A stretch of DNA of 64,000 bases, from sequence record PP777464.1; one strand, written 5' to 3'. Source of the stretch: Escherichia phage fEgEco12. The notes under the pieces were generated by a model. The model did not search any database, was not told the origin of the DNA, and worked only from the letters and a program-made list of their open reading frames with translations. This document shows, piece after piece, positions 2,151-15,302 of the stretch (its first letter is position 1; the number at the start of each line of letters is the position of its first letter). Position numbers and translations under genes: made by a program.

Positions 2151-2201
2151 GTTTTACATCAGGTGGGGAATAGTTCCCCCCTATATAAGAGGATTAAAAA
2201 A

Positions 2202-2441: not shown

Positions 2442-2527
2442 TAGAATTTATTTAAAGTACTATCATTTTTTTGCGATAGTACTTTATAATAGTGTTTTAT
2501 TCATACACCAACGATAAGGGCAACAGC

Positions 2528-2794: not shown

Positions 2795-2801
2795 AAAGTA
2801 C

Positions 2802-2829
2802 TTGCAAACTATGTTTAAAGGCGTATAAT
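2802..2829 (+). promoter_or_regulatory. sigma70-like early promoter
   Basis: TTGCAA, 16 nt, TATAAT; followed by AGCGGGAAC/TTCCCGC hairpin. Confidence 0.6.
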
Positions 2830-2875
2830 GTTTTACATCGAGAGCGGGAACTCTTCCCGCCTATAACCTGGAGTA

Positions 2876-3112
2876 ATGAAAATGACTAATATGTATATGA
2901 CTGAAGTTAAAACCGTAAAAGATACTACCACGAATAAAACTACTTACTTACAGCGGATCTGTGGTGTATGGCAACGTATCAGCAAATCAAAGTACTTTAA
3001 ATTAACATCATATGCAAACCGTTCGGATTCATTCAGTACTGAAATAAAAGGTAATAAAGTACACCAATACGGCACTTATTATTATTATAGCCTGGACGCG
3101 ATTGCAGTATAA
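2876..3112 (+). CDS. hypothetical early protein
   Basis: ORF track; start 2876 or 2882, the latter better spaced from GGAG. Confidence 0.6.
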   Translation: MKMTNMYMTEVKTVKDTTTNKTTYLQRICGVWQRISKSKYFKLTSYANRSDSFSTEIKGNKVHQYGTYYYYSLDAIAV

Positions 3113-3142
3113 GCAGTTTACAAATCTTTACAATTGCCGGTA

Positions 3143-3171
3143 TTGACTTATTTTGTCAGTACTGGCATAAT
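3143..3171 (+). promoter_or_regulatory. sigma70-like promoter with no ORF downstream
   Basis: TTGACT, 17 nt, CATAAT; followed by conserved box TAGCCCATAGGGTGCGGGAGTGTATC. Confidence 0.45.
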
Positions 3172-3361
3172 GTATTCATTGGCAGATAAGCCGTAGCCCA
3201 TAGGGTGCGGGAGTGTATCTATAGAAAAAGTAGTTTATTACAGTTACAATTGTGCACCCGGTGGGTTAGCTGTTGTCATGGGGTATATTATGCCAGTACT
3301 TGATAATGCTGTCAATACTTTTTTTTACTATTCAGTACTGAAAACTATTTTTAAAAAGTAC

Positions 3362-3389
3362 TTGCAAACTATGTTTAAAGGCGTATAAT
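3362..3389 (+). promoter_or_regulatory. Consensus early promoter driving a non-coding element
   Basis: TTGCAA, 16 nt, TATAAT; no ORF before the next promoter at 3480. Confidence 0.55.
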
Positions 3390-3396
3390 GTTTTAC

Positions 3397-3478
3397 ATCA
3401 GGACGGGGAACGAAATAAGTAACTTCCCGTTAAGTAGCCCAGGAGTAAGGCACACGAAAAACTCCCCTGATAAAATAG
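3397..3478 (+). ncRNA. Candidate small RNA (about 80 nt)
   Basis: Promoter-driven, no start codon, predicted stem-loops; near-identical copy at 13650-13728, variant at 5947-6040. Confidence 0.35.
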
Positions 3479-3479
3479 T

Positions 3480-3507
3480 TTGACAAATGTTTTTAAAAGC
3501 GTATAAT
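3480..3507 (+). promoter_or_regulatory. sigma70-like promoter
   Basis: TTGACA, 16 nt, TATAAT upstream of 3540 gene. Confidence 0.6.
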
Positions 3508-3539
3508 ACTTACATCAACTACTGAATGAGGGTTACAAA

Positions 3540-4151
3540 ATGAAAACTATCACTACTACTACTTTCGTTATGGATTTTTCTGAATTGAACGCAGAACAAA
3601 AAACGTCAGCTATCGAACTGGTTCGGGAACGTGAAAAAAACTCAAACGACAATTATTTTTCTGAAAGTGAAATTGAATACTATAAAGAAACAGTACTACC
3701 GGAATATGGCATTAATGACGCTGAAATACAATTCAGTGGCTTTTGGTCCCAGGGTGACGGTGCATCAATCAGTACTGACCACGTTGACGCAGTGAAGTTT
3801 TTACGCAAGGTAAGAGCATTAACTAAGTATCGCTCAATCCGTCACTTGCTGAATGAAGATGATTTGGCGATGAGTGTAAAGCGTTCGCACTCCCACTACT
3901 CGCATGAGAATACTGTAAGCGGGTACATTGAATCGGCTTACACTGATTTAACCGCAAAACAAGAAACGTTAGTTAATGAGCTTGAGGAACTACTCACTGA
4001 AACTATTCGTGAATTATCCCGCAAGTTGTACCGTGATTTAGAGAATGCATATGAGGATCAATTCACTACTGAAAACATTACGGCACTGATTGAGGGTAAC
4101 GAGTATCAATTCAATGTTATTGATGGCGTAGTGGAATCAATCGAATATTAA
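3540..4151 (+). CDS. hypothetical early protein (203 aa)
   Basis: ORF track; promoter and RBS GAGGG; acidic protein, no family recognised. Confidence 0.7.
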   Translation: MKTITTTTFVMDFSELNAEQKTSAIELVREREKNSNDNYFSESEIEYYKETVLPEYGINDAEIQFSGFWSQGDGASISTDHVDAVKFLRKVRALTKYRSIRHLLNEDDLAMSVKRSHSHYSHENTVSGYIESAYTDLTAKQETLVNELEELLTETIRELSRKLYRDLENAYEDQFTTENITALIEGNEYQFNVIDGVVESIEY

Positions 4152-4163
4152 TTTAAAAAGTAC

Positions 4164-4191
4164 TTGCAAACTAAGTTTAAAAGCGTATAAT
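4164..4191 (+). promoter_or_regulatory. sigma70-like early promoter
   Basis: TTGCAA, 16 nt, TATAAT, then AGCGGGAATAGTTCCCGCT hairpin. Confidence 0.6.
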
Positions 4192-4243
4192 ACTTTATAT
4201 CGAGAGCGGGAATAGTTCCCGCTACTAATGAGGAATACTACAA

Positions 4244-4408
4244 ATGAATACTTTTACCTTCGCTCAATTGAACGCCCTGGATGTATTGTCTGATGCTTTG
4301 CGGGATGCAACTGAAAGCGGTTTATTTGACAATGTTGACATTCACCCTGATGTAATTAATAATTTTTGTGATGCTATCGCAGAAGTACTGGAAGATCTAA
4401 AAAAATAA
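4244..4408 (+). CDS. small hypothetical protein (54 aa)
   Basis: Below ORF-track cutoff; promoter, hairpin, RBS GAGGAA; open frame to TAA. Confidence 0.55.
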   Translation: MNTFTFAQLNALDVLSDALRDATESGLFDNVDIHPDVINNFCDAIAEVLEDLKK

Positions 4409-4496
4409 TAGAAAGTACTTGCAATTAGTTTTCAGTACTGTATAATGGTTTACATCAAAGGGAGAAATGGTTCTCCCTGGTAATGAGGAAAATACA

Positions 4497-4718
4497 ATGG
4501 CTAATATCACTACTCTTTCCCAACTGGAAGCACTGGTTAAATCTATGCGGGAACATGCTGACAAAATCGGCGTACAAGATCCAGCCGTTTGCTTCTGCGA
4601 CGAATTGAATGATGATACCCTGGTAATAGCAGAAGTCCAGGACGTTTCTAACTATTCCTCGCGTTACACTGGCGGCGTAGCAAATAAAGGTGACTTCTGT
4701 TTATACCTTACAAAATAA
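4497..4718 (+). CDS. hypothetical early protein (73 aa)
   Basis: ATG after hairpin GGGAGAA..TTCTCCC and RBS GAGGAAAA. Confidence 0.65.
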   Translation: MANITTLSQLEALVKSMREHADKIGVQDPAVCFCDELNDDTLVIAEVQDVSNYSSRYTGGVANKGDFCLYLTK

Positions 4719-4723
4719 CAACG

Positions 4724-4753
4724 CGGGGAGATAATAACTCCCCGTTACTTTTT
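4724..4753 (+). terminator. Rho-independent terminator
   Basis: CGGGGAG-ataataa-CTCCCCG then T-run. Confidence 0.6.
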
Positions 4754-4962
4754 CAGTACTGAATCATTTAATAGACGGATCTCGGCACCCGGTGGGTTAG
4801 TGACAGTTTCGTCTTGATGTAATAATTATGCCAGTACTGGATGCACTTGTCAACAACTATTTTTTCAAATACTTTTTATTAAAATACTTGCAATTAGTTT
4901 TTAAACGCGTATAATGTTTTGCATAGGGGGAGCGGTTCCCCTGGTAACTAAGGAATAAGAAA

Positions 4963-5199
4963 ATGCTTGAACAAATCAAATCAACGTCTGCGAATGTAAC
5001 GGGAACGGTAGTACACTTTACTAGTGATGAATCGCGGGGTGTACCCTATTGTGCTGTACATGTAAACACTGAGGGTAACTACTGGTTTACGGTTTACGGA
5101 TCATATTCATTTGGACGGCCTGGGCATCAAAAAATTCTGGATAAAGTACAACCAACGGGTAAAAATATCACGGCTGAAATGTTTTATAAAAAATCATAA
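4963..5199 (+). CDS. hypothetical early protein (78 aa)
   Basis: ORF track; promoter, hairpin GGGGGAGCGGTTCCCC, RBS AAGGAA. Confidence 0.65.
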   Translation: MLEQIKSTSANVTGTVVHFTSDESRGVPYCAVHVNTEGNYWFTVYGSYSFGRPGHQKILDKVQPTGKNITAEMFYKKS

Positions 5200-5283
5200 A
5201 GTACTTGATAATAGTTTTTAGTACTGTATAATATTTTACATCGCAAGGGGGAGCGGTTCCCCCTGGTAACTAAGGATAATCAA

Positions 5284-5583
5284 ATGAAAATTGCAATCAT
5301 CGCCCTGGCTTTATCTGTTTCCTCTTTCGCTGTTAATGCGTCATTAGATGTAAGTAGTGAAAAATTCATTCAGTGCACTGTTGCAATGACCGATGAAAGA
5401 ACTGGCGAGATTGTATTAAAGGATTTAGAGATCCAGCCGGAAGCATTTAAAAACGGCCCGTTCCATGAAGAAGACGAAAACGGTAGCACAACAATTTATT
5501 ATGATGCCAGTACTAAACGCGGTTCGGTCACTGTTATGGATACCGAGAAAGTAACTCATACCGGCGTTATTAATTGCCGTTGA
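5284..5583 (+). CDS. putative exported small protein
   Basis: N-terminal signal-peptide-like MKIAIIALALSVSSFAVNA; promoter and hairpin upstream. Confidence 0.6.
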   Translation: MKIAIIALALSVSSFAVNASLDVSSEKFIQCTVAMTDERTGEIVLKDLEIQPEAFKNGPFHEEDENGSTTIYYDASTKRGSVTVMDTEKVTHTGVINCR

Positions 5584-5604
5584 TAGATACTACGGGGTAA
5601 CATC

Positions 5605-5835
5605 ATGACTAAGCGAATTGTTTTACTTAACGAAAGCAGTACTACACAACTACTTAACGCCGTGCATTATGATATTGAAACGAGCGTTAATCTTATCAGT
5701 ACTGTAGTTCTGTTGGACACTGGAAAGGTAGCCAATGATAAAGCGATTGCAGGTATACTAACGGATCTTGTGCCTGGTAGCAGTGCACCAATAACGTTAA
5801 ATGGTAAAGTGTTTAATATTTTACTCACTGATTAA
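5605..5835 (+). CDS. hypothetical protein (76 aa)
   Basis: ORF track; RBS GGGG 7 nt upstream; terminator follows. Confidence 0.6.
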   Translation: MTKRIVLLNESSTTQLLNAVHYDIETSVNLISTVVLLDTGKVANDKAIAGILTDLVPGSSAPITLNGKVFNILLTD

Positions 5836-5841
5836 GTACAT

Positions 5842-5870
5842 AGCCCACCTGGTGGGCTTTTTTGTTTTTG
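5842..5870 (+). terminator. Rho-independent terminator
   Basis: AGCCCACC/GGTGGGCT hairpin then TTTTTTGTTTTT. Confidence 0.65.
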
Positions 5871-5917
5871 TAGTATCGTAGTACTGAGATACTTTGAAAA
5901 TAGTTTTAAAAAAGTAG

Positions 5918-5945
5918 TTGACATTACCACAGAAAAGCGTAGAAT
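5918..5945 (+). promoter_or_regulatory. sigma70-like promoter
   Basis: TTGACA, 16 nt, TAGAAT; long structured leader before 6069. Confidence 0.55.
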
Positions 5946-6068
5946 GTATTACATCAAGACGGGGAGCACTAAGTAGACCGCCAGTAAGTCGAACGAAAAA
6001 CTGGACACGTCGAGAAAACTTTGATACACTAATAAACGTAAACTAAACTTTAATTGAGGATTTATAAA

Positions 6069-6551
6069 ATGGCTAATGTAAAATCATTCATCAAAGCACT
6101 GGTAGCAAATGAAACTAACGTCGCGGCTGAGATCCTGGCTGAACTGGATAACGATACCATGAAAGCGGTACGCAATAATTTTAACATCGCGTACAGTACT
6201 GCGAAAGAACTACAAGCAAATAAAGCGGCAGAAATTGAAGCGGCAAAGGCGGCCCGTGAAGCAGAACTACAAGCAACAATCGAAAGTATTCAGGCGGCAG
6301 TAGTTGGATTGGATCTGGAAGTAGTTACAGAGATGGCACAAAAAGCCCTGGCGGTTAAGTATGGGGAAGACAAGCCAGAAGTAAAAGCCAAAAAATGGAT
6401 TCAGGAACGCGTAGCGGTAGTACTGGACAACGGGGAAGAATATCTGATTCCGGTGCGTGGTAACTGTATTGCGGTAGTACTGGACGCGATTAACTCCAGT
6501 GGTATGACTCGCGAGGAATGGATCGAAGCTCATCGCAAAGTTGAAGCATAA
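6069..6551 (+). CDS. hypothetical protein, Ala/Lys/Glu-rich (160 aa)
   Basis: ATG 8 nt after GAGGA; track start is an upstream TTG. Confidence 0.65.
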   Translation: MANVKSFIKALVANETNVAAEILAELDNDTMKAVRNNFNIAYSTAKELQANKAAEIEAAKAAREAELQATIESIQAAVVGLDLEVVTEMAQKALAVKYGEDKPEVKAKKWIQERVAVVLDNGEEYLIPVRGNCIAVVLDAINSSGMTREEWIEAHRKVEA

Positions 6552-6572
6552 CAATTAAAGTACTGAATCACT

Positions 6573-6600
6573 AGCCCACCTTAAACAGTGGGCTTTTTTG
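6573..6600 (+). terminator. Rho-independent terminator
   Basis: AGCCCAC..GTGGGCT hairpin then TTTTTT. Confidence 0.65.
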
Positions 6601-6826
6601 TGTCTATAGTATTCCAGGCCACCAGCACCGCCTAGAAACGATTCTAACGCATTAAACTGATTATCTGATGCATCGCCCTAGCTGGTGGCGTTAAGGTCGT
6701 TAGAATGCGATTGAGAGCGTTTAAAGTATTTTGCAAAAAGTAATAAAAAGTACTTGCACGATTAAGAGATTAGCGTATAATTAATTACATCAAGGCGAGA
6801 CACCTTAACTAACTGAGGATATAAAG

Positions 6827-6979
6827 ATGAATACTTATGAACTGGATTGTTTTACTTTACAAGTAATGTCAGTATGCAGTAAGAAAGATTGGTCATCAAA
6901 GGAATTTAAAGCAGTTATCGCGTGTGCAAAACACGGCAAGACTATCAATGAAACGGCATCAATCATTGATAAACTTTAA
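6827..6979 (+). CDS. small hypothetical protein (50 aa), paralog of 10703-10846
   Basis: Below track cutoff; promoter upstream; shared C-terminal pattern with 10703 gene. Confidence 0.5.
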   Translation: MNTYELDCFTLQVMSVCSKKDWSSKEFKAVIACAKHGKTINETASIIDKL

Positions 6980-6987
6980 AAAATAGT

Positions 6988-7016
6988 TTGACAATAGTTT
7001 TAAGTACTGGCATAAT
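6988..7016 (+). promoter_or_regulatory. sigma70-like promoter
   Basis: TTGACA, 17 nt, CATAAT. Confidence 0.6.
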
Positions 7017-7049
7017 ACATACATCAACTACTGAATAGGAATTAAAAAA

Positions 7050-7277
7050 ATGGCTATTATCATTACTCGCGTATCTGGTACTACTGGCAACGAACAAGTA
7101 GTTGCAGTCATTACCAACAAGGAAGGTGCGGAATTGCAAAATGCAATGAATACCTGGGCCGTTAATGAGTTCGGTCAGTGGGCAAGTGTAGCATACATTG
7201 AAACCTATCAAGTGCCGTCGATTAGTTTAACTGATTTGGGCGTTGAGCGTATCCTTTGCCTGGATGAATTAAATTAA
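7050..7277 (+). CDS. hypothetical early protein (75 aa)
   Basis: ORF track; promoter, RBS AGGAA. Confidence 0.65.
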   Translation: MAIIITRVSGTTGNEQVVAVITNKEGAELQNAMNTWAVNEFGQWASVAYIETYQVPSISLTDLGVERILCLDELN

Positions 7278-7362
7278 AAAAGTACTTGCAAAGTAAATCG
7301 AATAAAGTATAATACATTACATCAAGGGGAGAAATGATTCTCCCCACTACAAGGAAACTAAT

Positions 7363-7506
7363 ATGAAAACTTGTCAATGTGGTCAGAAATCTATTACGGG
7401 TTTAAAGCGGGGCGTTGCTCTTTGCCAGTACCATTATAATTTACAAGTATGGGGTAAAGAATGGGCCGACCAGGTGGAAGCAGCAAAGAAAGCAAAAAGT
7501 AAGTAA
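7363..7506 (+). CDS. small Cys-rich hypothetical protein (47 aa)
   Basis: Below track cutoff; promoter, GGGGAGAAATGATTCTCCCC hairpin, RBS AAGGAA; CxC...CxxH. Confidence 0.55.
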   Translation: MKTCQCGQKSITGLKRGVALCQYHYNLQVWGKEWADQVEAAKKAKSK

Positions 7507-7525
7507 AAATATTATCACAGTACTA

Positions 7526-7554
7526 TTGACATAGTTTGATAGTACTGGCATAAT
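7526..7554 (+). promoter_or_regulatory. sigma70-like promoter, second subtype
   Basis: TATTGACATAGTTTGATAGTACTGGCATAAT; same box upstream of 10433, 10703 and 18946 genes. Confidence 0.6.
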
Positions 7555-7595
7555 AGATTTTATCAAGACAACATATTAATTTAAGGAATACAAAA

Positions 7596-7919
7596 ATGGC
7601 TAAAACTATCATTAACACCGTTTCCCTGGCTGCAATCCGTGCAATCAATGTTGACGGTAAACGTTGGACTGATTCATATGGCAATACTTATCATTCTTGT
7701 CATGTAAGCGTCGAACTGGATAACGGTTTGAATGATCTGGCGGTTGAATCATTTACTTATGGCTATGAAGATGCATATCAACAAACGGCGTTAGATCTAT
7801 TAAAGGAATCAGTAGACGGGCTTAATACTGATGAAACCTCCCTTACTCGTTTGTGCAATGATCTTAATATCCCGTTGCATTGTACTGTACAGAATGTTAA
7901 ACGCAAAAAAGATCTTTAA
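7596..7919 (+). CDS. hypothetical protein, paralog of 14427-14750
   Basis: Shared RWTDSYGNTYHSC and FTYGY blocks and C-terminal VKRKKD. Confidence 0.7.
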   Translation: MAKTIINTVSLAAIRAINVDGKRWTDSYGNTYHSCHVSVELDNGLNDLAVESFTYGYEDAYQQTALDLLKESVDGLNTDETSLTRLCNDLNIPLHCTVQNVKRKKDL

Positions 7920-7999
7920 TTAGCTTTACTTTATGCAGATACTTTGATATAGTGTCTGCATAGGGGAAAGAAATTAAATTAACTTAAGAGGAACGTATA

Positions 8000-8269
8000 A
8001 TGAAAAATATCAGTACTTTAATCGACGCAGGTACACATGTTCGGCGGTCTATGGTTGCAACCAGTACTACAAAACAAGTAGCGAGCGGTTATCTTGTATT
8101 TGTGCACGATGGTAAACTACTGGAACGTTCAATCAATTTTGATGTTAAAAACAATTGCCGTTTTATTATCTTTAAGCGTGAGCAATATAAAATTGATTTA
8201 CCAGCAAAGCCCATTAGTGGGGCGTACAACGTGCAATCATTGTTTGAACGTCAACCATACACCTATTAA
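8000..8269 (+). CDS. hypothetical protein (89 aa)
   Basis: ORF track; RBS AAGAGGAA. Confidence 0.6.
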   Translation: MKNISTLIDAGTHVRRSMVATSTTKQVASGYLVFVHDGKLLERSINFDVKNNCRFIIFKREQYKIDLPAKPISGAYNVQSLFERQPYTY

Positions 8270-8320
8270 TCAAAACATCGTTAGCGGTCGATTCAGGCCG
8301 CTTATATTGGGGATTATACC

Positions 8321-8593
8321 ATGAACGTTAATCAAGTACTGAATGAAGTTGAAAGCATCATTAAACCAATGAAACGCATTGATGCTATGTTAACACCGGA
8401 AGAATGCCGCCTATATGAGCGTTATAGCGTCGAACAAGTCCAGGCGATGGCTATGGCTACCCCAGCCGTTAAACCGCCTGAGAATGCGTTACAGGACGTT
8501 ACAGGGGATTATATCATTAATCCAGTACTAGGGAAGATGGCTGCAATCACCGAAGATCAACAAGACTACTTAAGCCAGTACTTAAAAGGTTAA
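8321..8593 (+). CDS. hypothetical protein (90 aa)
   Basis: ORF track; RBS GGGGA. Confidence 0.6.
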   Translation: MNVNQVLNEVESIIKPMKRIDAMLTPEECRLYERYSVEQVQAMAMATPAVKPPENALQDVTGDYIINPVLGKMAAITEDQQDYLSQYLKG

Positions 8594-8598
8594 TTAAT

Positions 8599-8808
8599 AT
8601 GCTTACTGTACAGGATAAGATCGACATCTTAAAGGTTAATATGTATGTGATTGATGCAGTACCTGGTAAAGTATTTGCATACGATGACACCACTGTAAGC
8701 GATTTCTACTATAGCCAGGACGTGGGGGATCTTTCTGTACAGTCGGTTATTGAAAACGTAGTTAATGTAGCGTATGAGCATTTACTTTCAAATAGTACTT
8801 GCAATTAG
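8599..8808 (+). CDS. hypothetical protein (69 aa)
   Basis: ORF track; 3-prime end overlaps next promoter. Confidence 0.55.
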   Translation: MLTVQDKIDILKVNMYVIDAVPGKVFAYDDTTVSDFYYSQDVGDLSVQSVIENVVNVAYEHLLSNSTCN

Positions 8809-8877
8809 TTTTTAAACGCGTATAATGTTTTACATGAAGGGGAGAAATGATTCTCCCCACTAATTAAGGAATATGAA

Positions 8878-9024
8878 ATGAAAGCATCAAAAAAGAGTAA
8901 TACTAAGAAAGCACGTTCACCTTTCGCTGGGGTATTCCCTTTACGTTTCGTTGATGAAGTAGTTTCCTACCCGCCGGGCCTTACTCCTGAGATGGTAGAA
9001 AGTTTGCGTAAATCTAAAAAATAG
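8878..9024 (+). CDS. small basic hypothetical protein (48 aa)
   Basis: Below track cutoff; promoter, GGGGAGAAATGATTCTCCCC hairpin, RBS AAGGAA. Confidence 0.55.
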   Translation: MKASKKSNTKKARSPFAGVFPLRFVDEVVSYPPGLTPEMVESLRKSKK

Positions 9025-9105
9025 TACTTGCAATTAGTTTTTAGTACTGTATAATGTTTTACATGAAGGGGAGAAATGATTCTCCCCAATAACAGGAGAA
9101 TCAAA

Positions 9106-9258
9106 ATGAAACAATACAACGCTCGGTTTGATGTTACTATCGGTAACGGCAAAGGTCAATTCTCTTTCAGTACTCGCAAAAGTTATACAGAAAACTTCCT
9201 GCGTAATTGTGCACTGACCGCCGCACAAATTAAACATTACTTTCAGGCTAAAAAATGA
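9106..9258 (+). CDS. hypothetical protein (50 aa)
   Basis: ATG after RBS CAGGAG; track start lies in UTR hairpin. Confidence 0.6.
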   Translation: MKQYNARFDVTIGNGKGQFSFSTRKSYTENFLRNCALTAAQIKHYFQAKK

Positions 9259-9344
9259 AATCATTAGCTTATTACAGTTCGGCCCTGGTCGGTGCATTGA
9301 TCGCGGCGTTGTTAGTAACCTATCTATTCTTTATGGTGATTTAA
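9255..9344 (+). CDS. candidate hydrophobic micropeptide (29 aa)
   Basis: ATGA overlap with upstream stop; single predicted TM helix; speculative. Confidence 0.3.
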   Translation: MKSLAYYSSALVGALIAALLVTYLFFMVI

Positions 9345-9488
9345 ATGAATCCAACAGGTTTAAACTATAAAAGTTGTTCGGCGTTTACGAAAGCAAATAA
9401 AGCGAATGCACGTAAAGCGAAAGTACAGGAATACATCAAGCAAGGCATGACGCGAAAGGCGGCGATTCTAAAAGCTAAAAATAAATGA
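9345..9488 (+). CDS. small basic hypothetical protein (47 aa)
   Basis: TAAATG junction with upstream peptide; Lys/Ala-rich. Confidence 0.45.
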   Translation: MNPTGLNYKSCSAFTKANKANARKAKVQEYIKQGMTRKAAILKAKNK

Positions 9489-9605
9489 AAAAAGTGGTTG
9501 ACTCCGGTCAGCCATTTTGCTATTATATATTCATTGAGAGATAGCTCACTAGCCCACAGGGTGCATAAGTGTATCTATTATATAAGTATTGAGTACTGAA
9601 AACTA
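9489..9605 (+). repeat. Conserved intergenic module, copy 1 of 4
   Basis: TTGACTCCGGTCAG..TATTAT promoter inside near-palindrome, then box TAGCCCACAGGGTGCATAAGTGTATC; copies near 13487, 16755, 19507. Confidence 0.6.
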
Positions 9606-9698
9606 TTTTTAAAAAGTACTTGCAAACTATCTCAATAAGCGTATAATGTTTTACATCGAAAGGGGAAACGGTTTCCCCTGGTAATAAGGAAACAAATC

Positions 9699-10040
9699 AT
9701 GACTATCTCAATTGCTCAATCTAACTTTGAAAATGAAATCATCGCCCAGGCACTGCGTTTAAATGATGGTCGGGCCGAAATTAATTACGGTTTCAATTCA
9801 GGCGGTTGTGAAAAATATCAGTACTTTGTAACGGCTGATGGCGGTGTCCTGGGTATCAATACAGTTATTGTAAACATACAGAAAATTAATTTCAATGATC
9901 CAGACGATAGCCAGTTTTACATCACTGGCGTAGACGTGAACTATGAGGATGACTCACTAACTGATGATCACACTGGCGAGCGGTTAGAAAGTGCATACGG
10001 TGAAGATGATTATCAGTCCGGTCCAGAAGATTTCGAATAA
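9699..10040 (+). CDS. hypothetical protein, acidic C-terminus (113 aa)
   Basis: ORF track; promoter, hairpin GGGGAAACGGTTTCCCC, RBS AAGGAA. Confidence 0.65.
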   Translation: MTISIAQSNFENEIIAQALRLNDGRAEINYGFNSGGCEKYQYFVTADGGVLGINTVIVNIQKINFNDPDDSQFYITGVDVNYEDDSLTDDHTGERLESAYGEDDYQSGPEDFE

Positions 10041-10136
10041 TATAAAAAAATAGTTTGACAATAGATTATAGTACTGTATAATAGTTTACATCAAGGGGAG
10101 AAAAACTTCTCCCCACTAACAGAGAGAAAAAACAAA

Positions 10137-10349
10137 ATGGCTAATATCTGCACTGTACTGAAAAATGCAAAACAAGTTTTATTTTCTGATCACGATCATT
10201 TAAACAAGGATATTACTGGCGTTCGGAATATCAAAGATGTAAAAAGTGTTATGGGTATCTATTGCAATATGAAACGTGTTGGAACGTTCGGCGACAAAGT
10301 ACTATACCAGGCAGGGGATTACAATTTTACACTGACTATCATTAACTAA
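10137..10349 (+). CDS. hypothetical protein (70 aa)
   Basis: ORF track; promoter TTGACA..TATAAT, hairpin, RBS. Confidence 0.65.
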   Translation: MANICTVLKNAKQVLFSDHDHLNKDITGVRNIKDVKSVMGIYCNMKRVGTFGDKVLYQAGDYNFTLTIIN

Positions 10350-10432
10350 AAATATTATCACAGTACTATTGACATAGTTTGATAGTACTGACATAATAAC
10401 TTTTATCAACTACACTACTAAGGAATTAAAAA

Positions 10433-10612
10433 ATGGCTATCATCGCAAAAACTGAAATCGTTGGTCTGGATTCTATCATCATGACGTTTGAAGATCAAAA
10501 AGGTATGTATGTAGTTTCATATGGTGATTATGTTCGGGAGTATGAAACGGTAGACGAAGCCTTTGAAAGTTATATTCGCCAGGTGAATAAAGCATACGAC
10601 GACTACCGCTAA
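10433..10612 (+). CDS. small hypothetical protein (59 aa)
   Basis: Below track cutoff; subtype-2 promoter, RBS AAGGAA. Confidence 0.55.
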   Translation: MAIIAKTEIVGLDSIIMTFEDQKGMYVVSYGDYVREYETVDEAFESYIRQVNKAYDDYR

Positions 10613-10702
10613 AATATATTACCAGTACTATTGACATAGATTGATAGTACTGTATAATAAGTTTTATAAACAGTAGTTAACTTAACCTAAGAGAGAAATA
10701 AA

Positions 10703-10846
10703 ATGATCGCACTGGATTCATTCATCGACGCAGTACTGGCAAAAACTGGCGAGGATCTGACCGCAGAACAATACGCGATGATCGAGCAATGTCAGCAAAA
10801 CGGTAAATCGGTGAAAGATACTGTTAAGATTATCCGCAAGATGTAA
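10703..10846 (+). CDS. small hypothetical protein (47 aa), paralog of 6827-6979
   Basis: Below track cutoff; promoter, RBS GAGAGAAA. Confidence 0.5.
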   Translation: MIALDSFIDAVLAKTGEDLTAEQYAMIEQCQQNGKSVKDTVKIIRKM

Positions 10847-10951
10847 TATTATAGCCCACTGGTTAACGCTGGTGGGCTTTAATCATTTACCCTATACAAT
10901 GCCAGTACTAAACCGTTTATCTCGTTAGAATGCGTTACAGGACGTTTGACA

Positions 10952-11149
10952 ATGATTAGCATGAAATCAGTACAAAAACAAATAGAAACATTATCAAAAA
11001 TTAAACGTAAACAGTACTCGTTAGAATATACAATCAATGGTAACTATCATCTAATGAAAGAGAATAATTTCATTGTCATTGATGAATCATTGCAAGTTAT
11101 TAGTATAGTACTGAAAGCATTAATCAATGACAGAAAAAAATTAAAATAA
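10952..11149 (+). CDS. hypothetical protein
   Basis: ORF track (TTG at 10946); weak RBS; start uncertain. Confidence 0.4.
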   Translation: MISMKSVQKQIETLSKIKRKQYSLEYTINGNYHLMKENNFIVIDESLQVISIVLKALINDRKKLK

Positions 11150-11244
11150 TCTATTGACAATATCCTCCAGTACTGGCATAATACTTACATCAAGACGAGA
11201 ACGTCACTAACCCATAGGGTGCACAAATGTAACTATATAATATC

Positions 11245-11315
11245 GATCAATAAATGATCAAAAAAGTACTGGATCAATTTAGCATAAGGCGTATAATTCT
11301 GATCAATTCTTGATC
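11245..11315. promoter_or_regulatory. Cluster of five GATC sites in (T)GATCAA context around a promoter
   Basis: GATC at 11245, 11256, 11272, 11301, 11312 within 71 bp. Confidence 0.6.
11270..11297 (+). promoter_or_regulatory. Promoter with GATC-containing degenerate -35
   Basis: Consensus -35 replaced by TGGATC; -10 TATAAT; two GATC just downstream. Confidence 0.5.
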
Positions 11316-11478
11316 AAAGGCAATATACGCAGTTGAATTTATATAGACAGTACAAAGGCGTTACTATTCGTGGTAATGCTGGTGGATATGTAGTATCATA
11401 TGGTTTGAATAAGATAAACACTAGTAGTATTATTGTAGCATTACAGTACTATAGTATTTTTATAATGAGGTTAAAATA

Positions 11479-11736
11479 ATGGCAGTAGGATACGCGAAAG
11501 ACGGGGCCGAACAAGACGAGATTCATGCAGTGATTCAGGCCGCCGTTAACCACGCTAGAAAGCAAATTAACGCACAAAGAGAATCACTTGTACATTGCCT
11601 CGACTGCGGCGATAAAATCCCTGAGAATCGACGCCAGGCCGTTATAGGGTGCATGTATTGTATTACTTGCCAGGAGGATCATGATAGTACTTTTAAAAGA
11701 GATCCGCGTAATTGTTGGCATAGATCTATGAGATAA
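11479..11736 (+). CDS. TraR/DksA-family C4 zinc-finger protein
   Basis: CLDCGDKIPENRRQAVIGCMYCITCQ = C-x2-C-x17-C-x2-C spacing typical of TraR/DksA. Confidence 0.7.
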   Translation: MAVGYAKDGAEQDEIHAVIQAAVNHARKQINAQRESLVHCLDCGDKIPENRRQAVIGCMYCITCQEDHDSTFKRDPRNCWHRSMR

Positions 11737-11799
11737 AAAGTATTGACAGTACTGAAAGATAGTGTATAATGTTTTATATCTTAACTGAGGATAGTAATC

Positions 11800-12156
11800 A
11801 TGGGAATACAACATATCACGCGTACTACTGACAATGGCGAGATCACTGGCTATCAAGTACAGGGCAAAGTAGCACAATTGCAGTACTGGTTTGTTAAACG
11901 TGGAATCATTGCACCGGATCTTGATTATGACCGTGTAGCGTTTATTGATTCTCTTTATGTTGATCCTGATAGTCGGGGCAATGGTGAAGGTAACGAATTA
12001 ATGAATGCCTTTATTGATGCCGCCGATGATTCAGATTGTATCATCTTAGAATGCGATACGGGAGAAGATAACGCCTTTAATCTTAAAGAATGGTACGAAG
12101 GTTTCGGATTCGAGGTATTGATAGATAGTGAATATCCTATCATGATTTTATCATAG
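11800..12156 (+). CDS. minimal GNAT-like N-acetyltransferase (putative)
   Basis: Motif-A-like SRGNGEGNELMNAF and C-terminal NAFNLKEWYEGFGFE. Confidence 0.5.
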   Translation: MGIQHITRTTDNGEITGYQVQGKVAQLQYWFVKRGIIAPDLDYDRVAFIDSLYVDPDSRGNGEGNELMNAFIDAADDSDCIILECDTGEDNAFNLKEWYEGFGFEVLIDSEYPIMILS

Positions 12157-12234
12157 TACTTGCATTTAGTTTTCAGTACTGTTATAGTACTTGCATCAAG
12201 GGGAAACATCTTCCCCTACTAAGAGGAAATAAAA

Positions 12235-12423
12235 ATGGAAAACTTATCAAGTATTTTAGTACAAGATGATTTCGGTAATCCTGGAAGTGCTATCATTGTT
12301 CGGGGCAATAAAGCAACGTTTGTTATTGCTGGTGGACCCGTACAGCGTAGCATTAAAAATAATGCTGTTACCATTAATAATGTACGCTATCGCTTAGATA
12401 AAGAATTAATTCATAAACTGTAA
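12235..12423 (+). CDS. hypothetical protein (62 aa)
   Basis: ORF track; promoter, hairpin GGGGAAACATCTTCCCC, RBS; internal Chi. Confidence 0.6.
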   Translation: MENLSSILVQDDFGNPGSAIIVRGNKATFVIAGGPVQRSIKNNAVTINNVRYRLDKELIHKL

Positions 12424-12450
12424 TATTAATTTAATAGAGGATAACAATAA

Positions 12451-12774
12451 ATGTACATTCATACTACTGTCACAAAGGAAGTCCGTTGCCAGTTCGAAAG
12501 TATTCCGGGCGTATGTTTCATCACTGGTACGTTTTCCCCTGGTGATCGTGATAATCCAGTACTGTTACAGTTACGCCATCCATTATGGGATAAAGCATTT
12601 GATCTGCCGTTGAATGAATTCGCAACCACTGCTGATAAGTACATTAAAAATATTCGCGAGAATGATTGCCTATTCATTAATGCTTTTAGTGATGCCGCGT
12701 TAAGTGAGATCCATGCTGTATTGGTTGCAATCATGGAATCAATGGAGAAAACTATATTCAAACAAGGTGAATAA
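12451..12774 (+). CDS. hypothetical protein (107 aa)
   Basis: ORF track; RBS AGAGGA. Confidence 0.6.
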   Translation: MYIHTTVTKEVRCQFESIPGVCFITGTFSPGDRDNPVLLQLRHPLWDKAFDLPLNEFATTADKYIKNIRENDCLFINAFSDAALSEIHAVLVAIMESMEKTIFKQGE

Positions 12775-12857
12775 AAACTATTGACAATGCAATCCAGTAC
12801 TGTATAATAGTTTACATGAAGGGGAGAAATGATTCTCCCCACTAAGAGGAAAGAAAA

Positions 12858-13070
12858 ATGCAAGGTCAACTAATCGTTCGTAAATGGTCTGATACTAACG
12901 AAAAACCGTGGGATGTACAATACATCGCCCCAAATGGTGAATCCAGATATCAACCAGGTGTAACGCATAGTACTGAGCAATTCGCCGCCGCTCATCGCGA
13001 ACGTCTGTTACAATCAATGCAGCAAGGTTCCGGTGAAAAATTCATTCAGGATCATTGGCTGAAAGATTAA
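12858..13070 (+). CDS. hypothetical protein (70 aa)
   Basis: ORF track; promoter TTGACA..TATAAT, hairpin, RBS AGAGGAAA. Confidence 0.65.
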   Translation: MQGQLIVRKWSDTNEKPWDVQYIAPNGESRYQPGVTHSTEQFAAAHRERLLQSMQQGSGEKFIQDHWLKD

Positions 13071-13157
13071 AAAAGTACTTGCACAGTACTGAATAAAGTG
13101 TATAATGTTTTATATCGGAAGGGGAATAGTTCCCCTCCTAACAAAGAGGAAAGTATA

Positions 13158-13331
13158 ATGGTCCAGGTAGAATTAACAGTACTGAAAGATCTGTTTTATC
13201 GGATTGGTACTACTGGCGAATATCCGAAGGGTGATAATGCAAAACTTTACGTATCACTCGACTTATGGCAACGCGAACAATTAGCAACGGCCTGGCGTAA
13301 AGGCAAAGCAGATCGAGAGGTGAAAGCATGA
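13158..13331 (+). CDS. hypothetical protein (57 aa)
   Basis: ATG after hairpin and RBS AGAGGAAAG; track start in -10 box. Confidence 0.6.
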   Translation: MVQVELTVLKDLFYRIGTTGEYPKGDNAKLYVSLDLWQREQLATAWRKGKADREVKA

Positions 13332-13477
13332 AAGAATTCTTATTTGAAGTAGTGTTTCAAGGTGTCGGTAATAACCAACTGATTCGATCAAGTGGTTATA
13401 ATGTTAACCAGGCATGGAATAACATTAAACAAATGTACCCGAACGCTATCACATATCGCAACCCGAAAGAAGTTTAA
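13328..13477 (+). CDS. small hypothetical protein (49 aa)
   Basis: Below track cutoff; ATGA overlap with upstream stop. Confidence 0.45.
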   Translation: MKEFLFEVVFQGVGNNQLIRSSGYNVNQAWNNIKQMYPNAITYRNPKEV

Positions 13478-13486
13478 AAATATTTG

Positions 13487-13600
13487 AAAAAGGGATTGAC
13501 TCCGGTCAGTCCCTTTGCTATTATATACGCATAGAAACAAATTAGCCCACAGGGTGCATAAATGTATCTATTGTTTGCTGGTGGCTAGTACTGAAAACTA
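13487..13600 (+). repeat. Conserved intergenic module, copy 2
   Basis: Same TTGACTCCGGTCAG promoter and TAGCCCACAGGGTGCATAAATGTATC box; includes Chi at 13577. Confidence 0.6.
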
Positions 13601-13615
13601 TTTTTAAAAAAGTAC

Positions 13616-13643
13616 TTGCATTGTACTTAGAATCAAGTATAAT
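13616..13643 (+). promoter_or_regulatory. Promoter driving second candidate sRNA
   Basis: TTGCAT, 16 nt, TATAAT. Confidence 0.5.
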
Positions 13644-13649
13644 GTTTTA

Positions 13650-13728
13650 CATCAGGACGGGGAACGAAATAAGTAACCCCGTTAAGTAGTCCAGGAGTAA
13701 GACATACGAAAAACTCCCCTGATAAAAT
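13650..13728 (+). ncRNA. Candidate small RNA, copy 2
   Basis: Near-identical to 3397-3478; compensatory change in first stem (ACGGGG/CCCCGT). Confidence 0.35.
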
Positions 13729-13731
13729 AGT

Positions 13732-13759
13732 TTGACAATAGAAAGTAAACGAGTATAAT
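13732..13759 (+). promoter_or_regulatory. sigma70-like promoter
   Basis: TTGACA, 16 nt, TATAAT upstream of 13793. Confidence 0.6.
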
Positions 13760-13792
13760 ACTTACATCAACCACTGATAAGGAAACATTAAA

Positions 13793-14068
13793 ATGCGGAC
13801 TTTACTTACAGCTAACGAAATCGAGCAAGTACTGACTACTAATCTGGAACAATGGAAACGTGAAGCAGATATCCAGGCGGTTCAATGCCTTAACGATAAG
13901 TTAACGCCAGATGACTTAAGCACGATTGTTGATCCACAATTTTATGAAGATATTCACGACACGTCTTTAAGCGTCGAGGATGTACTTGATAAGCACTACA
14001 TTGATACTGATTTACATGTTTACGGTCGTAAAAACTTTATCACTATTCACGACATTTACAATACTTAA
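13793..14068 (+). CDS. hypothetical protein (91 aa)
   Basis: ORF track; promoter and RBS AAGGAAA. Confidence 0.65.
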   Translation: MRTLLTANEIEQVLTTNLEQWKREADIQAVQCLNDKLTPDDLSTIVDPQFYEDIHDTSLSVEDVLDKHYIDTDLHVYGRKNFITIHDIYNT

Positions 14069-14156
14069 GTATTGACAAAGTATCTTAGTACTGTATAATA
14101 GTTTACATCAAGTGAGGGGAAACGGTTCCCCTCCTAACAAAGAGAGAGAAATAAAA

Positions 14157-14339
14157 ATGGCTAAGTGCACTATCTGTAATAAAGAAATAGTATTAGTTCC
14201 AAGTGCCCGTGAACGTGCCGCTCGGTTCGGTGGCAAAGCGTCAGACTATACAAAAATGTTTACTGCCCATACAGCTTGCCAGGTAGCAAAACGTTCACAA
14301 GAAAGCGTAGAATTAATGCGTAAACTTTCCAAAAAATAA
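14157..14339 (+). CDS. small Cys-containing hypothetical protein (60 aa)
   Basis: ATG after hairpin and RBS; CTIC...C pattern. Confidence 0.6.
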   Translation: MAKCTICNKEIVLVPSARERAARFGGKASDYTKMFTAHTACQVAKRSQESVELMRKLSKK

Positions 14340-14426
14340 GTATTGACAAAGTATCTTAGTACTGTATAATAGTTTACATCAAGCGAGGGGAATAGTTCCC
14401 CTCCTAACAAAGAGAGAGAAATAAAA

Positions 14427-14750
14427 ATGGCTATGATCCTTGCCCAGAAAGTAGAATTGAAAATTGTAACCTCCTTTGACATTAACGTTAATCGGTGGAC
14501 TGATTCACACGGCAATACTTACCACTCTTGCTACGTGTCTGCGTTAATTGGCGACCGCTGGGAAGACCTGGGACACGAAACCTTTACATACGGTTACGGT
14601 ACACAAGGCGAATACACGGGCTTGGAGATCATTAAAGAAACCGTTATAGGTTTCAACCCGAAAGAAAAAGTTATTCATCGCATCGAGGAAGAGATCAACA
14701 AAGAAATAACAGTTCGCTACCACGATGTAAAACGTAAGAAAGACATGTAA
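14427..14750 (+). CDS. hypothetical protein, paralog of 7596-7919
   Basis: Promoter/UTR cassette 14339-14426 nearly identical to 14069-14156. Confidence 0.7.
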   Translation: MAMILAQKVELKIVTSFDINVNRWTDSHGNTYHSCYVSALIGDRWEDLGHETFTYGYGTQGEYTGLEIIKETVIGFNPKEKVIHRIEEEINKEITVRYHDVKRKKDM

Positions 14751-14772
14751 TAGAATCCATTTAAAGTACTAT

Positions 14773-14801
14773 TTGACATTGCCCAGATAGTACTTTATAA
14801 T
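14773..14801 (+). promoter_or_regulatory. sigma70-like promoter
   Basis: TTGACA, 17 nt, TATAAT. Confidence 0.6.
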
Positions 14802-14845
14802 AGACTCTAACTTGTAGTACTAACTCAACTAATAGGATGTATACC

Positions 14846-15241
14846 ATGATTACTAAATTCTACGCTACCCGTGAAGCTGCCCGTATTGTTGCACGCGAGG
14901 AAGGAGCAGCATTTAAAGACATGGGCAAAGATGCAACGAAAGGACAACGCTGGGCCGTACAGTTCAAAGAAATCTCTGATATTGTGAATTCACCTGAGCC
15001 AGTACTGACAGCAGCAGAACTAAAACGAGCGGATATGCTGGCGGCAATACTTGACGCACAAGATGAGTTTATCGCTGATTCTGATATCAAAGTACAGGTA
15101 AACCACACCGCATGGACTCACGCGGATCACCTGGCAAACCTTAAGCGTCCAAGTGAACTGATTCGCAACCAGAAAGAGATCCGACATGATCGTAAGGGTA
15201 ATCGTGTAACAGTATACAGTAAACGCCGCCAGGTTATCTAA
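14846..15241 (+). CDS. hypothetical protein, paralog of 2528-2794
   Basis: Shared N- and C-terminal blocks; RBS AGGA. Confidence 0.65.
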   Translation: MITKFYATREAARIVAREEGAAFKDMGKDATKGQRWAVQFKEISDIVNSPEPVLTAAELKRADMLAAILDAQDEFIADSDIKVQVNHTAWTHADHLANLKRPSELIRNQKEIRHDRKGNRVTVYSKRRQVI

Positions 15242-15263
15242 TAACTTGCAGTACTAACAACAC

Positions 15264-15288
15264 GGCGGGATCAGTTCCCGCCTTTTTT
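15264..15288 (+). terminator. Rho-independent terminator
   Basis: GGCGGGA-tcagt-TCCCGCC then TTTTTT. Confidence 0.7.
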
Positions 15289-15302
15289 ATAGGACAAACA
15301 AA

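Follow-up and report, generated by a model that had tools for sequence, protein, structure and literature searches.

The 64,000-nucleotide stretch of Escherichia phage fEgEco12 analyzed here (record PP777464.1; hereafter the window) carries at 8839–8858 a short, GC-rich palindrome in front of a small early gene, and the question is why this hairpin is repeated, in part letter for letter, before so many other early genes and whether it works as DNA or as RNA. An earlier note on this DNA had proposed that such stem-loops lie at the 5′ end of early messenger RNAs (mRNAs), where they protect the mRNA from decay or bind a common factor. This interpretation is partly supported. A hairpin formed by RNA in the 5′ untranslated region (UTR) is well supported by the sequence comparisons given below, and its function we infer. 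The larger, PeSL-type cassette that contains the hairpin was missed in the earlier note. PeSLs (promoter-early stem-loops) were defined in the T4-like phages RB49/phi1 as an AT-rich region, a σ70 consensus promoter, a polyG/polyC stem-loop, and a Shine–Dalgarno (SD) sequence with an ATG (Arbiol et al. 2010, PMC2839356), and were later described in PST/T4 and nt-1/KVP40 (Comeau et al. 2014, PMC4122927). All PeSL characters that can be tested on sequence are present in the window cassettes. The hairpins fit the stem-loop part of PeSL-type mobile early-promoter cassettes and belong to the less common subclass, in which the stem-loop follows the −10 box. The kind of element is known; new are these phage lineages and the dominance of this positional variant.

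The 20-mer at the locus, GGGGAGAAATGATTCTCCCC, was found exactly four times, always on the plus strand (7326–7345, 8839–8858, 9068–9087, and 12821–12840), with three-mismatch variants at 4459 and 10095; dinucleotide shuffles gave no match to it. The recurrence of perfect stem-loops and the identity of some copies, both reported in the earlier note, were thus borne out. Two of the positions quoted there (8839 and 9068) were exact, and the other two (7328 and 12822) were 1–2 nt off the true 7326 and 12821. Its variants were all recovered, namely AGCGGGAA-CAC-TTCCCGCT at 1704, GGGGAATAGTTCCCC at 2165, and GAGGGGGAAATGGTTTCCCCTC at 18274.

Compact GC hairpins (stem of at least 6 bp with at least 4 G–C pairs, loop of 3–6 nt) were then counted on the plus strand of 1–24 kb, with dinucleotide shuffles as controls. 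The scan gave 36 hairpins, compared with 4.2 ± 1.7 in the shuffles. Twenty-three of the 36 start 10–14 nt past a promoter of the form TTGNNN-N16/17-TATAAT, and a 24th promoter-linked hairpin, at 12199, lies behind a TATAGT −10 box. The 24 near-consensus σ70 promoters with a hairpin are all on the plus strand, between 1.66 and 20.1 kb. The other hairpins of 1–24 kb are mostly terminator-like (terminators with T-tracts, terminator-type hairpins after genes, and a separate 12-bp repeat family), and the few remaining ones lie within the noncoding left end or within open reading frames (ORFs). No promoter in 24–64 kb showed such a hairpin.

The spacing is narrow. Over the 24 cassettes, the distance from the end of the −10 box to the hairpin is 12.3 ± 1.3 nt (mean ± SD), from the hairpin end to the SD 7.0 ± 1.5 nt (range 5–10), and from the hairpin end to the ATG 20.0 ± 2.1 nt (range 17–24 in all 24). 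The fixed position of the hairpin between the −10 box and the ribosome-binding site (RBS) that had been claimed is therefore confirmed.

The region can be placed in the genome. Megablast of window positions 7–13 kb returned 121Q/PBECO4-like jumbo coliphages of the genus Asteriusvirus at 91–98% identity. Positions 1–2212 of vB_Ec-M-J are aligned by window 1–2197, and the vB_Ec-M-J record annotates a direct terminal repeat at 1–21525. Direct terminal repeats of ~20–21 kb are known in other Asteriusvirus members, by experiment or PhageTerm (PMC11895373; PMC13070987). Judged by this alignment and by the annotated and known repeats, the window represents the left-hand 64 kb of an Asteriusvirus genome, starting at its left end, and the first ~21 kb is the direct terminal repeat. 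The G+C content drops from 0.38 to about 0.31 near 24 kb.

Of the small early genes that the terminal repeat contains, about 40% are preceded by a hairpin cassette, and in the equivalent 17.3 kb of vB_Ec-M-J there are 18 matches to the hairpin model described below against 42 annotated coding sequences. The earlier statement that the hairpins serve most early genes is accordingly right for early promoters (24 of about 36 recognisable promoter–gene units) and wrong for genes. Every RBS-proximal GC hairpin in the early region is associated with a promoter, and such hairpins are missing before genes that lack a promoter of their own. In about a dozen early promoters, the same TTACAT start region is combined with a short leader of 22–39 nt and no hairpin; these leaders resemble the hairpin leaders minus 20 nt (ACATCAA-CTACTGAATGAGG vs ACATCAA-hairpin-ACTAATTAAGG).

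The cassette has a constant order. An A-rich tract with GTAC is followed by the −35 box (TTGCAA, TTGCAT, or TTGACA), a spacer of 16–17 nt, TATAAT (once TATAGT), G/A-TTT-TACAT, 1–7 nt, the hairpin, an (A/C)CTAA-like sequence, the SD, and the ATG. Upstream of the −35 box, AAAAAGTAC or AAATAGTAC is found in nearly all cassettes. The window hairpins have the G-rich arm always on the 5′ side and the C-rich arm on the 3′ side, with a stem of 6–9 bp and a loop of 3–5 nt. The genes behind the cassettes encode 47–134 aa, and nearly all are annotated as hypothetical in related records.

RNA polymerase of E. coli prefers a pyrimidine at −1 and a purine at +1 of the start. The start for host σ70 RNA polymerase is predicted at the A of the conserved TTACAT, 7–8 nt past the −10 box, and TTACAT is kept across the 85 aligned copies described below. 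With a start at this A, the hairpin would span about +2/+8 to +21/+28 of each early mRNA. The claim of a hairpin near the 5′ end thus stands as far as its position downstream of the predicted start is concerned, the start itself being a prediction from promoter geometry. The predicted unpaired 5′ tail before the perfect stem is 1–7 nt (mean 5.3), or 1–6 nt with bulged extensions. When ten hairpin leaders were folded, the hairpin was present in the minimum free energy (MFE) and centroid structures of all ten, and the SD was unpaired in the MFE structure of eight. The leader folds range from −13 to −19.3 kcal/mol, to which the hairpin itself gives about −11 to −15 kcal/mol. At the focal locus, the leader plus coding start folds at −13.9 kcal/mol with the hairpin as its sole structure.

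In three copies with CATGAA (8834–8863, 9063–9092, and 12816–12845), the predicted +1 is the A of an AUG, which opens a 9-codon frame through the hairpin (MKGRNDSPH-stop or ...SPQ-stop), so a leaderless mini-ORF is possible in those copies only. A mini-ORF from the loop ATG (ATGATTCTCCCC...) or from a 5′-terminal AUG was rejected as a general feature, as it is found only in the 3–4 copies with the exact sequences.

Whether the palindrome is kept as RNA was examined by comparison among phages. MAFFT alone misaligned stems with 3-nt and 4-nt loops; a covariance model (R1) was therefore built from nine window copies with 4-nt loops, and all copies were realigned to it. R1 finds 85 copies (67 distinct) in eight phages, all on the gene strand. 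These phages are that of the window with its close relatives G17, vB_Ec-M-J, and PBECO4, the more distant Klebsiella phage fENko-Kae01 and Salmonella phage Munch, and, from other lineages, Phapecoctavirus nepoznato and the Vequintavirinae phage A7_1. Scanning viral contigs for the pattern added true modules only in 121Q and in a divergent Rak2-like metagenomic contig; all else that it picked up matched by chance.

The R1 alignment, which was fitted to the model structure and is somewhat biased toward pairing, shows 98.1% of cells paired, six of eight pairs changed on both sides, and 68 compensatory cells. None of 500 shuffles matched the observed percentage of paired cells, the compensatory cells, the further pair types, or the covariation score, and one of 500 matched the count of pairs changed on both sides. 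The pairing signal collapses when the partner columns are slid by 1–3. Among the non-Watson–Crick cells, G·U (27) outnumbers A·C/C·A (7). Neutral transitions would give both equally, so the G·U excess indicates pairing of the plus strand, most simply as RNA. Substitution frequencies from 41 near-orthologous comparisons are 0.163 for loops, 0.040–0.067 for flanks, and 0.037 and 0.012 for the two stem arms; loops evolve 4–13 times faster than the stem. Two loop-proximal A–U pairs are nearly invariant (65 and 63 of the 67 distinct copies), and the loops vary freely in sequence and in length (3–7 nt). The Vequintavirinae copy carries a compensated stem change, GGCGGC/GCCGCC. Because of the covariation, the G·U excess, and stems that are kept while loops vary or invert, selection is acting on RNA pairing of the sense strand.

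In nepoznato (825–4460) and A7_1 (4006–8135), phages of about 145–150 kb, the same modules of promoter, TTACAT, hairpin, and SD were observed, some of them with a TAAACT or TAGACT −10 box and quite different stems. The presence of modules in these other lineages implies either cassette exchange or shared ancestry across families. A 25-kb stretch of Klebsiella phage Muenster (Alcyoneusvirus), perhaps not the equivalent early region, showed no such modules; going by this stretch, Rak2-like phages do not all carry them.

Promoter and hairpin are gained, lost, or swapped as one unit before orthologous genes. Gene 12235 has one cassette type in the window, G17, and PBECO4, and a whole cassette of another type in vB_Ec-M-J and 121Q. 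At gene 13158, the window and vB_Ec-M-J have the promoter as well as the hairpin, and G17, PBECO4, and 121Q lack both. When the window is compared with PBECO4, 12 of the 16 internal breaks in synteny lie at most 7 nt from a promoter cassette (P about 2e-5), and 7 of the 16 lie in hairpin cassettes (P about 2e-3). Smaller changes were also seen. At gene 18314 the stem GAG...CTC of the window is GCG...CGC in PBECO4 (GCGGGGGAA-TAG-TTCTCCCGC), an A–U to C–G change on both sides. The loop CAC of 1704–1722 is GTG in the PBECO4 orthologue, and the loop CTA of 17723–17741 is TAG in the PBECO4 and 121Q orthologues; each is the exact reverse complement with the stem unchanged. Such loop inversions are the signature of strand switching at a palindrome, and a loop that is inverted between orthologues is one whose sequence is not read. 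The ~90 bp of cassette homology would also be a substrate for recombination, through which both the identical copies and the swapping of cassettes between phages would arise.

PeSLs are found repeatedly in front of ORFans in hyperplastic regions, and a part in modular shuffling has been ascribed to them (PMC2839356; PMC4122927). Recombination was mapped within a stem-loop in RB49 (PMC2839356), and mini-circles from recombination between cassettes are counted among the PeSL characters. Five subclasses were distinguished by stem-loop position, mostly inside the promoter and one downstream of the −10 box (PMC2839356). The RB49 sequence showed most stem-loops either between the two promoter boxes (TTGACA-GGGGATCACCGATCCCC-TATAAT) or across the −10 box, outside their own transcript; at RB49 ORF207 the stem-loop is downstream of the −10 box, with the same layout as in the window cassettes. 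The leader motif CATCAAGACGAG is common to RB49 and the window. Over 30 kb of RB49 the R1 model gave no significant match; its best hit (E = 0.53) was not on the strand of the genes but on the opposite one. In fENko-Kae01, before the orthologues of genes 12858 and 13158, the stem-loop overlaps the −10 box (GGGATATACTTATCCC; GGGATAGTATATACTATCCC), which is the layout most often seen in RB49; several PeSL subclasses therefore occur side by side in these phages. The literature searched on Asteriusvirus, Rak2-like, and rV5-like phages contained no mention of these hairpins or of PeSLs, and no transcript mapping.

As for function, we give about half of our belief to the reading of the cassette hairpin as a protective or insulating 5′ leader element of each early mRNA, a reading in which the functional part is inferred. 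The hairpin would act in cis on its own transcript as a 5′-proximal barrier and insulator. It would hinder 5′-end-dependent access of RNase E, or its scanning toward the A/U-rich RBS region. It would also fix the fold of the leader, so that very different ORFs behind the cassette could all be translated well, and the A/U-rich RBS, 5–10 nt downstream, would stay unpaired. At least four cassettes (1663, 4888, 9620, and 16888) stand directly behind a terminator-like element with no intervening gene, and a role on the upstream transcript only would be redundant there. A role in cis is favored by the lack of a U-tract, by the position of the hairpin inside its own transcript, and by these four cassettes, where there is nothing to stop.

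Several observations weigh against this reading. Most RB49/phi1 PeSL stem-loops are outside their own transcript, and if the stem-loop function is common to all PeSLs, it is not 5′-end protection. When one RB49/phi1 PeSL stem-loop was inserted between lacZ and a strong promoter, expression fell to an extent similar to that seen with rrnB T1 (PMC2839356), which is a terminator-like effect. About a dozen early promoters here, a third of them, have no hairpin. Recombination homogenisation could partly explain the tight spacing in place of a functional constraint. Stabilisers of the ompA type at the 5′ terminus tolerate about 2–4 unpaired 5′ nucleotides. The predicted tail (1–7 nt, mean 5.3) is on average longer than this, and RppH could still act on such a 5′ tail. 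The start sites are predictions; the literature searched contained no 5′-end mapping for these phages.

A more far-reaching version would make the hairpin a shared tag on phage early mRNAs, swapped among at least three unrelated large-coliphage lineages, that exempts them from, or later exposes them to, a phage-induced change in host RNA decay (for example, Srd-type RNase E activation) or a dedicated shut-off factor; it would then be a cross-lineage self/non-self signal and not a passive stabiliser. We regard this version as decidedly doubtful.

The main rival is the published one. The PeSL authors read the stem-loop as a terminator or attenuator of upstream transcription and as a recombination site (PMC2839356), and in the window it would damp upstream transcription so that promoter output does not accumulate along the array. 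The lacZ result speaks for it, and the cassettes here are dense and in tandem. We consider it unlikely for these hairpins, as they have no U-tract: the 8 nt past the stem contain 1.7 T on average (maximum 3) and the first 4 nt contain 0–2, whereas true terminators in the same region have T5–T6 runs. A terminator scan (1–20 kb, plus strand) called none of 23 hairpins; the 24th, at 20120, is outside the scan and has no U-tract either. An efficient stop would also cut short the mRNA of the cassette itself, at about +28 and upstream of the RBS. A canonical Rho-independent terminator was ruled out by the absent U-tracts, and what the G17 record annotates as terminators is a different set of hairpins, located after genes. 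The stem-loop may instead act between cistrons. After cleavage in the A/U-rich RBS region it would stop 3′-to-5′ exonucleases and so stabilise the upstream cistron of read-through transcripts, and its position relative to the promoter would be irrelevant. This explanation would unify the five PeSL subclasses, as the stem-loop is always between an upstream stop codon and a downstream RBS, at any place with respect to the promoter; RNA-level selection with G·U tolerance fits it equally well, and few canonical terminators are found between the early genes. It appears rather unlikely all the same, because hairpins also occur at the four cassettes behind a terminator-like element or without an upstream gene, because the hairpin in this phage is never promoterless nor directly after a stop codon, and because its distance to the −10 box is very tightly fixed.

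Recognition of the hairpin in trans by an RNA-binding protein or a nuclease, of the phage or of the host (for shut-off, processing, or privilege, with a logic like that of T4 RegA/RegB or lambda N-boxB) would account for the constant polarity of the G-rich and C-rich arms, for the near-invariant loop-proximal A–U pairs, and for the same element in three phage lineages that are unrelated but have their hosts in common. The common protein-binding site proposed earlier is nevertheless decidedly unlikely, as the loops vary in sequence and between 3 and 7 nt in length, two of them are reverse complements between orthologues (CAC/GTG and CTA/TAG), and stems change with compensation, as in the Vequintavirinae copy. 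No boxA-like partner motif was found, and Rfam scans at gathering and permissive thresholds gave no match at gathering score in the 64 kb, with two chance-level hits elsewhere (E about 0.8). A purely DNA-level palindrome, either a recombination or cruciform site or a dimeric operator without an RNA role, would agree with the coincidence of cassettes and synteny breakpoints, with the loop inversions as a strand-switching signature at a DNA palindrome, and with the recombination mapped within the RB49 stem-loop. A strand-symmetric role should treat G·T and its mirror A·C alike, yet the count is 27 against 7; the arm spacing of 3–7 nt and the differing half-sites are unsuited to a dimeric operator, and the ~90 bp cassette homology alone is enough for recombination. 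We therefore hold it to be very improbable. Free loops and the G·U bias together make both the trans-factor tag and the purely DNA role less likely. Three specific candidates were rejected: a dimeric DNA operator, by the variable arm spacing and half-sites and the 27:7 ratio of G·T over A·C; an RNase III site of the T7 early type (roughly 20 bp of duplex), by stems of 6–9 bp, about 11 at most with bulges; and a lambda boxB/nut or HK022 put site, by a single hairpin with loops that are unconstrained, unrelated, and in some cases inverted.

The positions of the focal elements and of all other hairpins are collected in Table 1.

Table 1. Focal cassette, further cassette hairpins, and the part of the terminal repeat that contains them (window coordinates; −35, −10, and ATG are given by first nucleotide where a single number is shown).
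Feature	Position	Strand	Associated sites or basis
Focal −35 box TTGCAA, behind A-rich tract and GTAC	8799..8804	+	
Focal −10 box TATAAT, 16-nt spacer	8821..8826	+	
Focal predicted transcription start, A of TTACAT, 8th nt past −10	8834	+	motif conservation and pyrimidine/purine rule
Focal hairpin GGGGAGAA-ATGA-TTCTCCCC, 8 bp	8839..8858	+	
Focal SD AAGGAA, ATG, and 48-aa early ORF	8866..8871; 8878..8880; 8878..9024	+	orthologous coding sequence annotated in G17
Hairpin AGCGGGAA-CAC-TTCCCGCT	1704..1722	+	−35 1663, −10 1685, ATG 1746
Hairpin GGGGAA-TAG-TTCCCC, bulged AGG/CCT extension	2165..2179	+	−35 2123, ATG 2202
Hairpin GCGGGAA-CTC-TTCCCGC	2844..2860	+	−35 2802, ATG 2882
Hairpin AGCGGGAA-TAG-TTCCCGCT	4205..4223	+	−35 4164, ATG 4244
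Hairpin AGGGAGAA-ATGG-TTCTCCCT	4459..4478	+	−35 4419, ATG 4497
Hairpin TAGGGGGA-GCGG-TTCCCCTG, G·U pairs	4924..4943	+	−35 4888, ATG 4963; behind canonical terminator 4723–4745
Hairpin AGGGGGAG-CGG-TTCCCCCT	5246..5264	+	−35 5205, ATG 5284
Exact 20-mer copy	7326..7345	+	−35 7286, ATG 7363
Exact 20-mer copy	9068..9087	+	−35 9028, ATG 9106
Hairpin AGGGGAAA-CGG-TTTCCCCT	9661..9679	+	−35 9620, ATG 9699
Hairpin GGGGAGAA-AAAC-TTCTCCCC	10095..10114	+	−35 10055, ATG 10137
Hairpin AGGGGAA-ACATC-TTCCCCT	12199..12217	+	−35 TTGCAT 12160, −10 TATAGT 12183, ATG 12235
Exact 20-mer copy	12821..12840	+	−35 12781, ATG 12858
Hairpin AGGGGAA-TAG-TTCCCCT	13120..13136	+	−35 13079, ATG 13158
Hairpin GAGGGGAA-ACGG-TTCCCCTC	14114..14133	+	−35 14072, ATG 14157
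Hairpin GAGGGGAA-TAG-TTCCCCTC	14385..14403	+	−35 14343, ATG 14427
Hairpin AGGGGGAA-TGG-TTCTCCCT, internal G·U	16929..16947	+	−35 16888, ATG 16967
Hairpin GGGGAGAA-TAG-TTCTCCCC	17232..17250	+	−35 17192, ATG 17272
Hairpin GGGGAGAA-CTA-TTCTCCCC	17723..17741	+	−35 17683, ATG 17766
Hairpin GAGGGGGAA-ATGG-TTTCCCCTC, internal G·U	18274..18295	+	−35 18234, ATG 18314
Hairpin GGGGGAG-ATATC-CTCCCCC	18608..18626	+	−35 18570, ATG 18645
Hairpin GCGGGGGAA-TAG-TTCTCCCGC, internal G·U	19251..19271	+	−35 19211, ATG 19294
Hairpin GAGGGGGAA-ATGG-TTCTCCCTC, internal G·U	20120..20141	+	−35 20080, ATG 20162; last cassette before the terminal repeat ends
Stretch of the ~21-kb terminal repeat with all 24 promoter–hairpin–RBS cassettes	1663..20162	+	vB_Ec-M-J alignment, cassette list

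Other elements were observed in the same region. A second repeat family is located at 9491–9518, 13489–13516, 16758–16785, and 19510–19537, with related units at about 3143–3220 and 11154–11240. Its 12-bp hairpin AAAGGGATTGACTCCGGTCAGTCCCTTT embeds a −35 box TTGACT and is followed by a TATTAT −10 box, a conserved ORF-free stretch of ~45 nt (CATTGAGAGATAACTCACTAGCCCAYAGGGTGCATAAGTGTATCT), and the next cassette. The family is similar to the A3-4G3-loop-C3T3-4 PeSLs of nt-1/KVP40. It may be a terminator–promoter unit that drives a small RNA; a tail similar to its GTTCTATGTGTATCT is present in Klebsiella phage Muenster. Two further copies of a unit, 90% identical, lie at 3362–3480 and 13616–13732, each with a strong promoter and about 80 nt without an ORF (ACATCAGGACGGGGAACGAAATAAGTAAC..CCCGTTAAGTAG.CCAGGAGTAAG...ACGAAAAACTCCCCTGATAAAATAG), directly followed by a hairpin-less promoter for the next gene. 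These units are a candidate structured small RNA. Near-consensus promoters on the minus strand, directed against the genes, were seen at 4853–4825, 3315–3287, 1382–1355, and 1041–1013. Two minus-strand promoters are followed by the leader motif CATCAAGACGA (4819–4808 and 1133–1122), and the one at 4853 faces a bidirectional terminator at 4745–4723. Short antisense or noncoding transcripts may arise from these promoters.

The leftmost 1.6 kb (1–1660) contains no convincing gene. It has a consensus promoter at 366 without an ORF, several hairpins (5–21, 578–597), and a relic-like GTGGGGATAGTTTCCCCGC at 959–977 without a promoter. Past the terminal repeat (21091–24116), the genes are tightly packed, overlapping, and promoterless. 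Farther in, between about 30 and 63 kb, about 43 ORFs of 140–280 aa form a long array on the same strand, which may be a paralogous family.

These results extend PeSL-type cassettes beyond the T4-like phages, to the Asteriusvirus group (genomes of ~350 kb) with its Salmonella and Klebsiella relatives, to a Phapecoctavirus, and to a Vequintavirinae phage. In these jumbo phages, the terminal repeat of roughly 20 kb is described as an array of such cassettes. As the stem-loop is consistently inside the transcript here, the array is a natural system to separate an upstream terminator from a protective or insulating leader of the cassette's own mRNA. The cassettes are compact, predicted to be very strong, dependent on host polymerase, and standardised in their leader, which would make them useful expression parts. 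They also help to predict early genes and gene-shuffling boundaries in the annotation of these phages.

Compared with known systems, the hairpins share with REP/BIME elements that they are repeated GC-rich hairpins between genes of read-through transcripts; REP elements follow stop codons and have no promoters, whereas each copy here is tied to a promoter and an RBS. Like boxB and put, they are small RNA hairpins transcribed soon after an early promoter, but boxB has a conserved purine-rich, GNRA-like pentaloop and a boxA, and put consists of two stem-loops over about 70 nt. The leader of T7 gene 10, GGGAGACCACAACGGUUUCCC, has a 5′ stem-loop of the stabilising type. With ompA hp1, papA, and T7 gene 10, the leaders here, given the predicted start, share a short GC-rich hairpin near the mRNA 5′ end, upstream of an unpaired RBS, and the T7 phi10 hairpin has similar arms (GGGAGA.../...UUUCCC). 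Those hairpins have few unpaired 5′ nucleotides and belong to single genes, whereas here 1–7 nt are predicted and the hairpin is part of a repeated mobile cassette. Obstacles in the 5′ UTR to RNase E scanning have reportedly been described by Richards and Belasco in 2019. Such an obstacle need not be 5′-terminal, and the hairpin here likewise stands between the 5′ end and an A/U-rich, cleavage-prone sequence; that category is a mechanism rather than a sequence family, and the likeness is one of predicted position only. For 5′-terminal stabilising stem-loops, Emory, Bouvet and Belasco 1992 and Arnold et al. 1998 are the sources as listed in PMC3997798.

The closest comparison is with the PeSLs themselves. 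All 24 hairpins here are downstream of the −10 box, in the 5′ UTR past the predicted start, whereas those of RB49 are mostly in the spacer or at the −10 box. The hosts of the cassettes here are Asteriusvirus and its relatives, a Phapecoctavirus, and a Vequintavirinae phage, and not Straboviridae; the cassettes fill a direct terminal repeat here and internal hyperplastic regions there, and the terminator function claimed there is unsupported by the sequence here, which has no U-tract. The two share the AT-rich tract, near-perfect −35 and −10 boxes, a stem-loop of a G-arm and a C-arm with G·T pairs, and the SD with its ATG. Both are repeated many times before small ORFans in a plastic region (here, the genes of 47–134 aa), and both mark the boundaries of insertion, deletion, and replacement between close relatives, as 12 of the 16 breakpoints do here.

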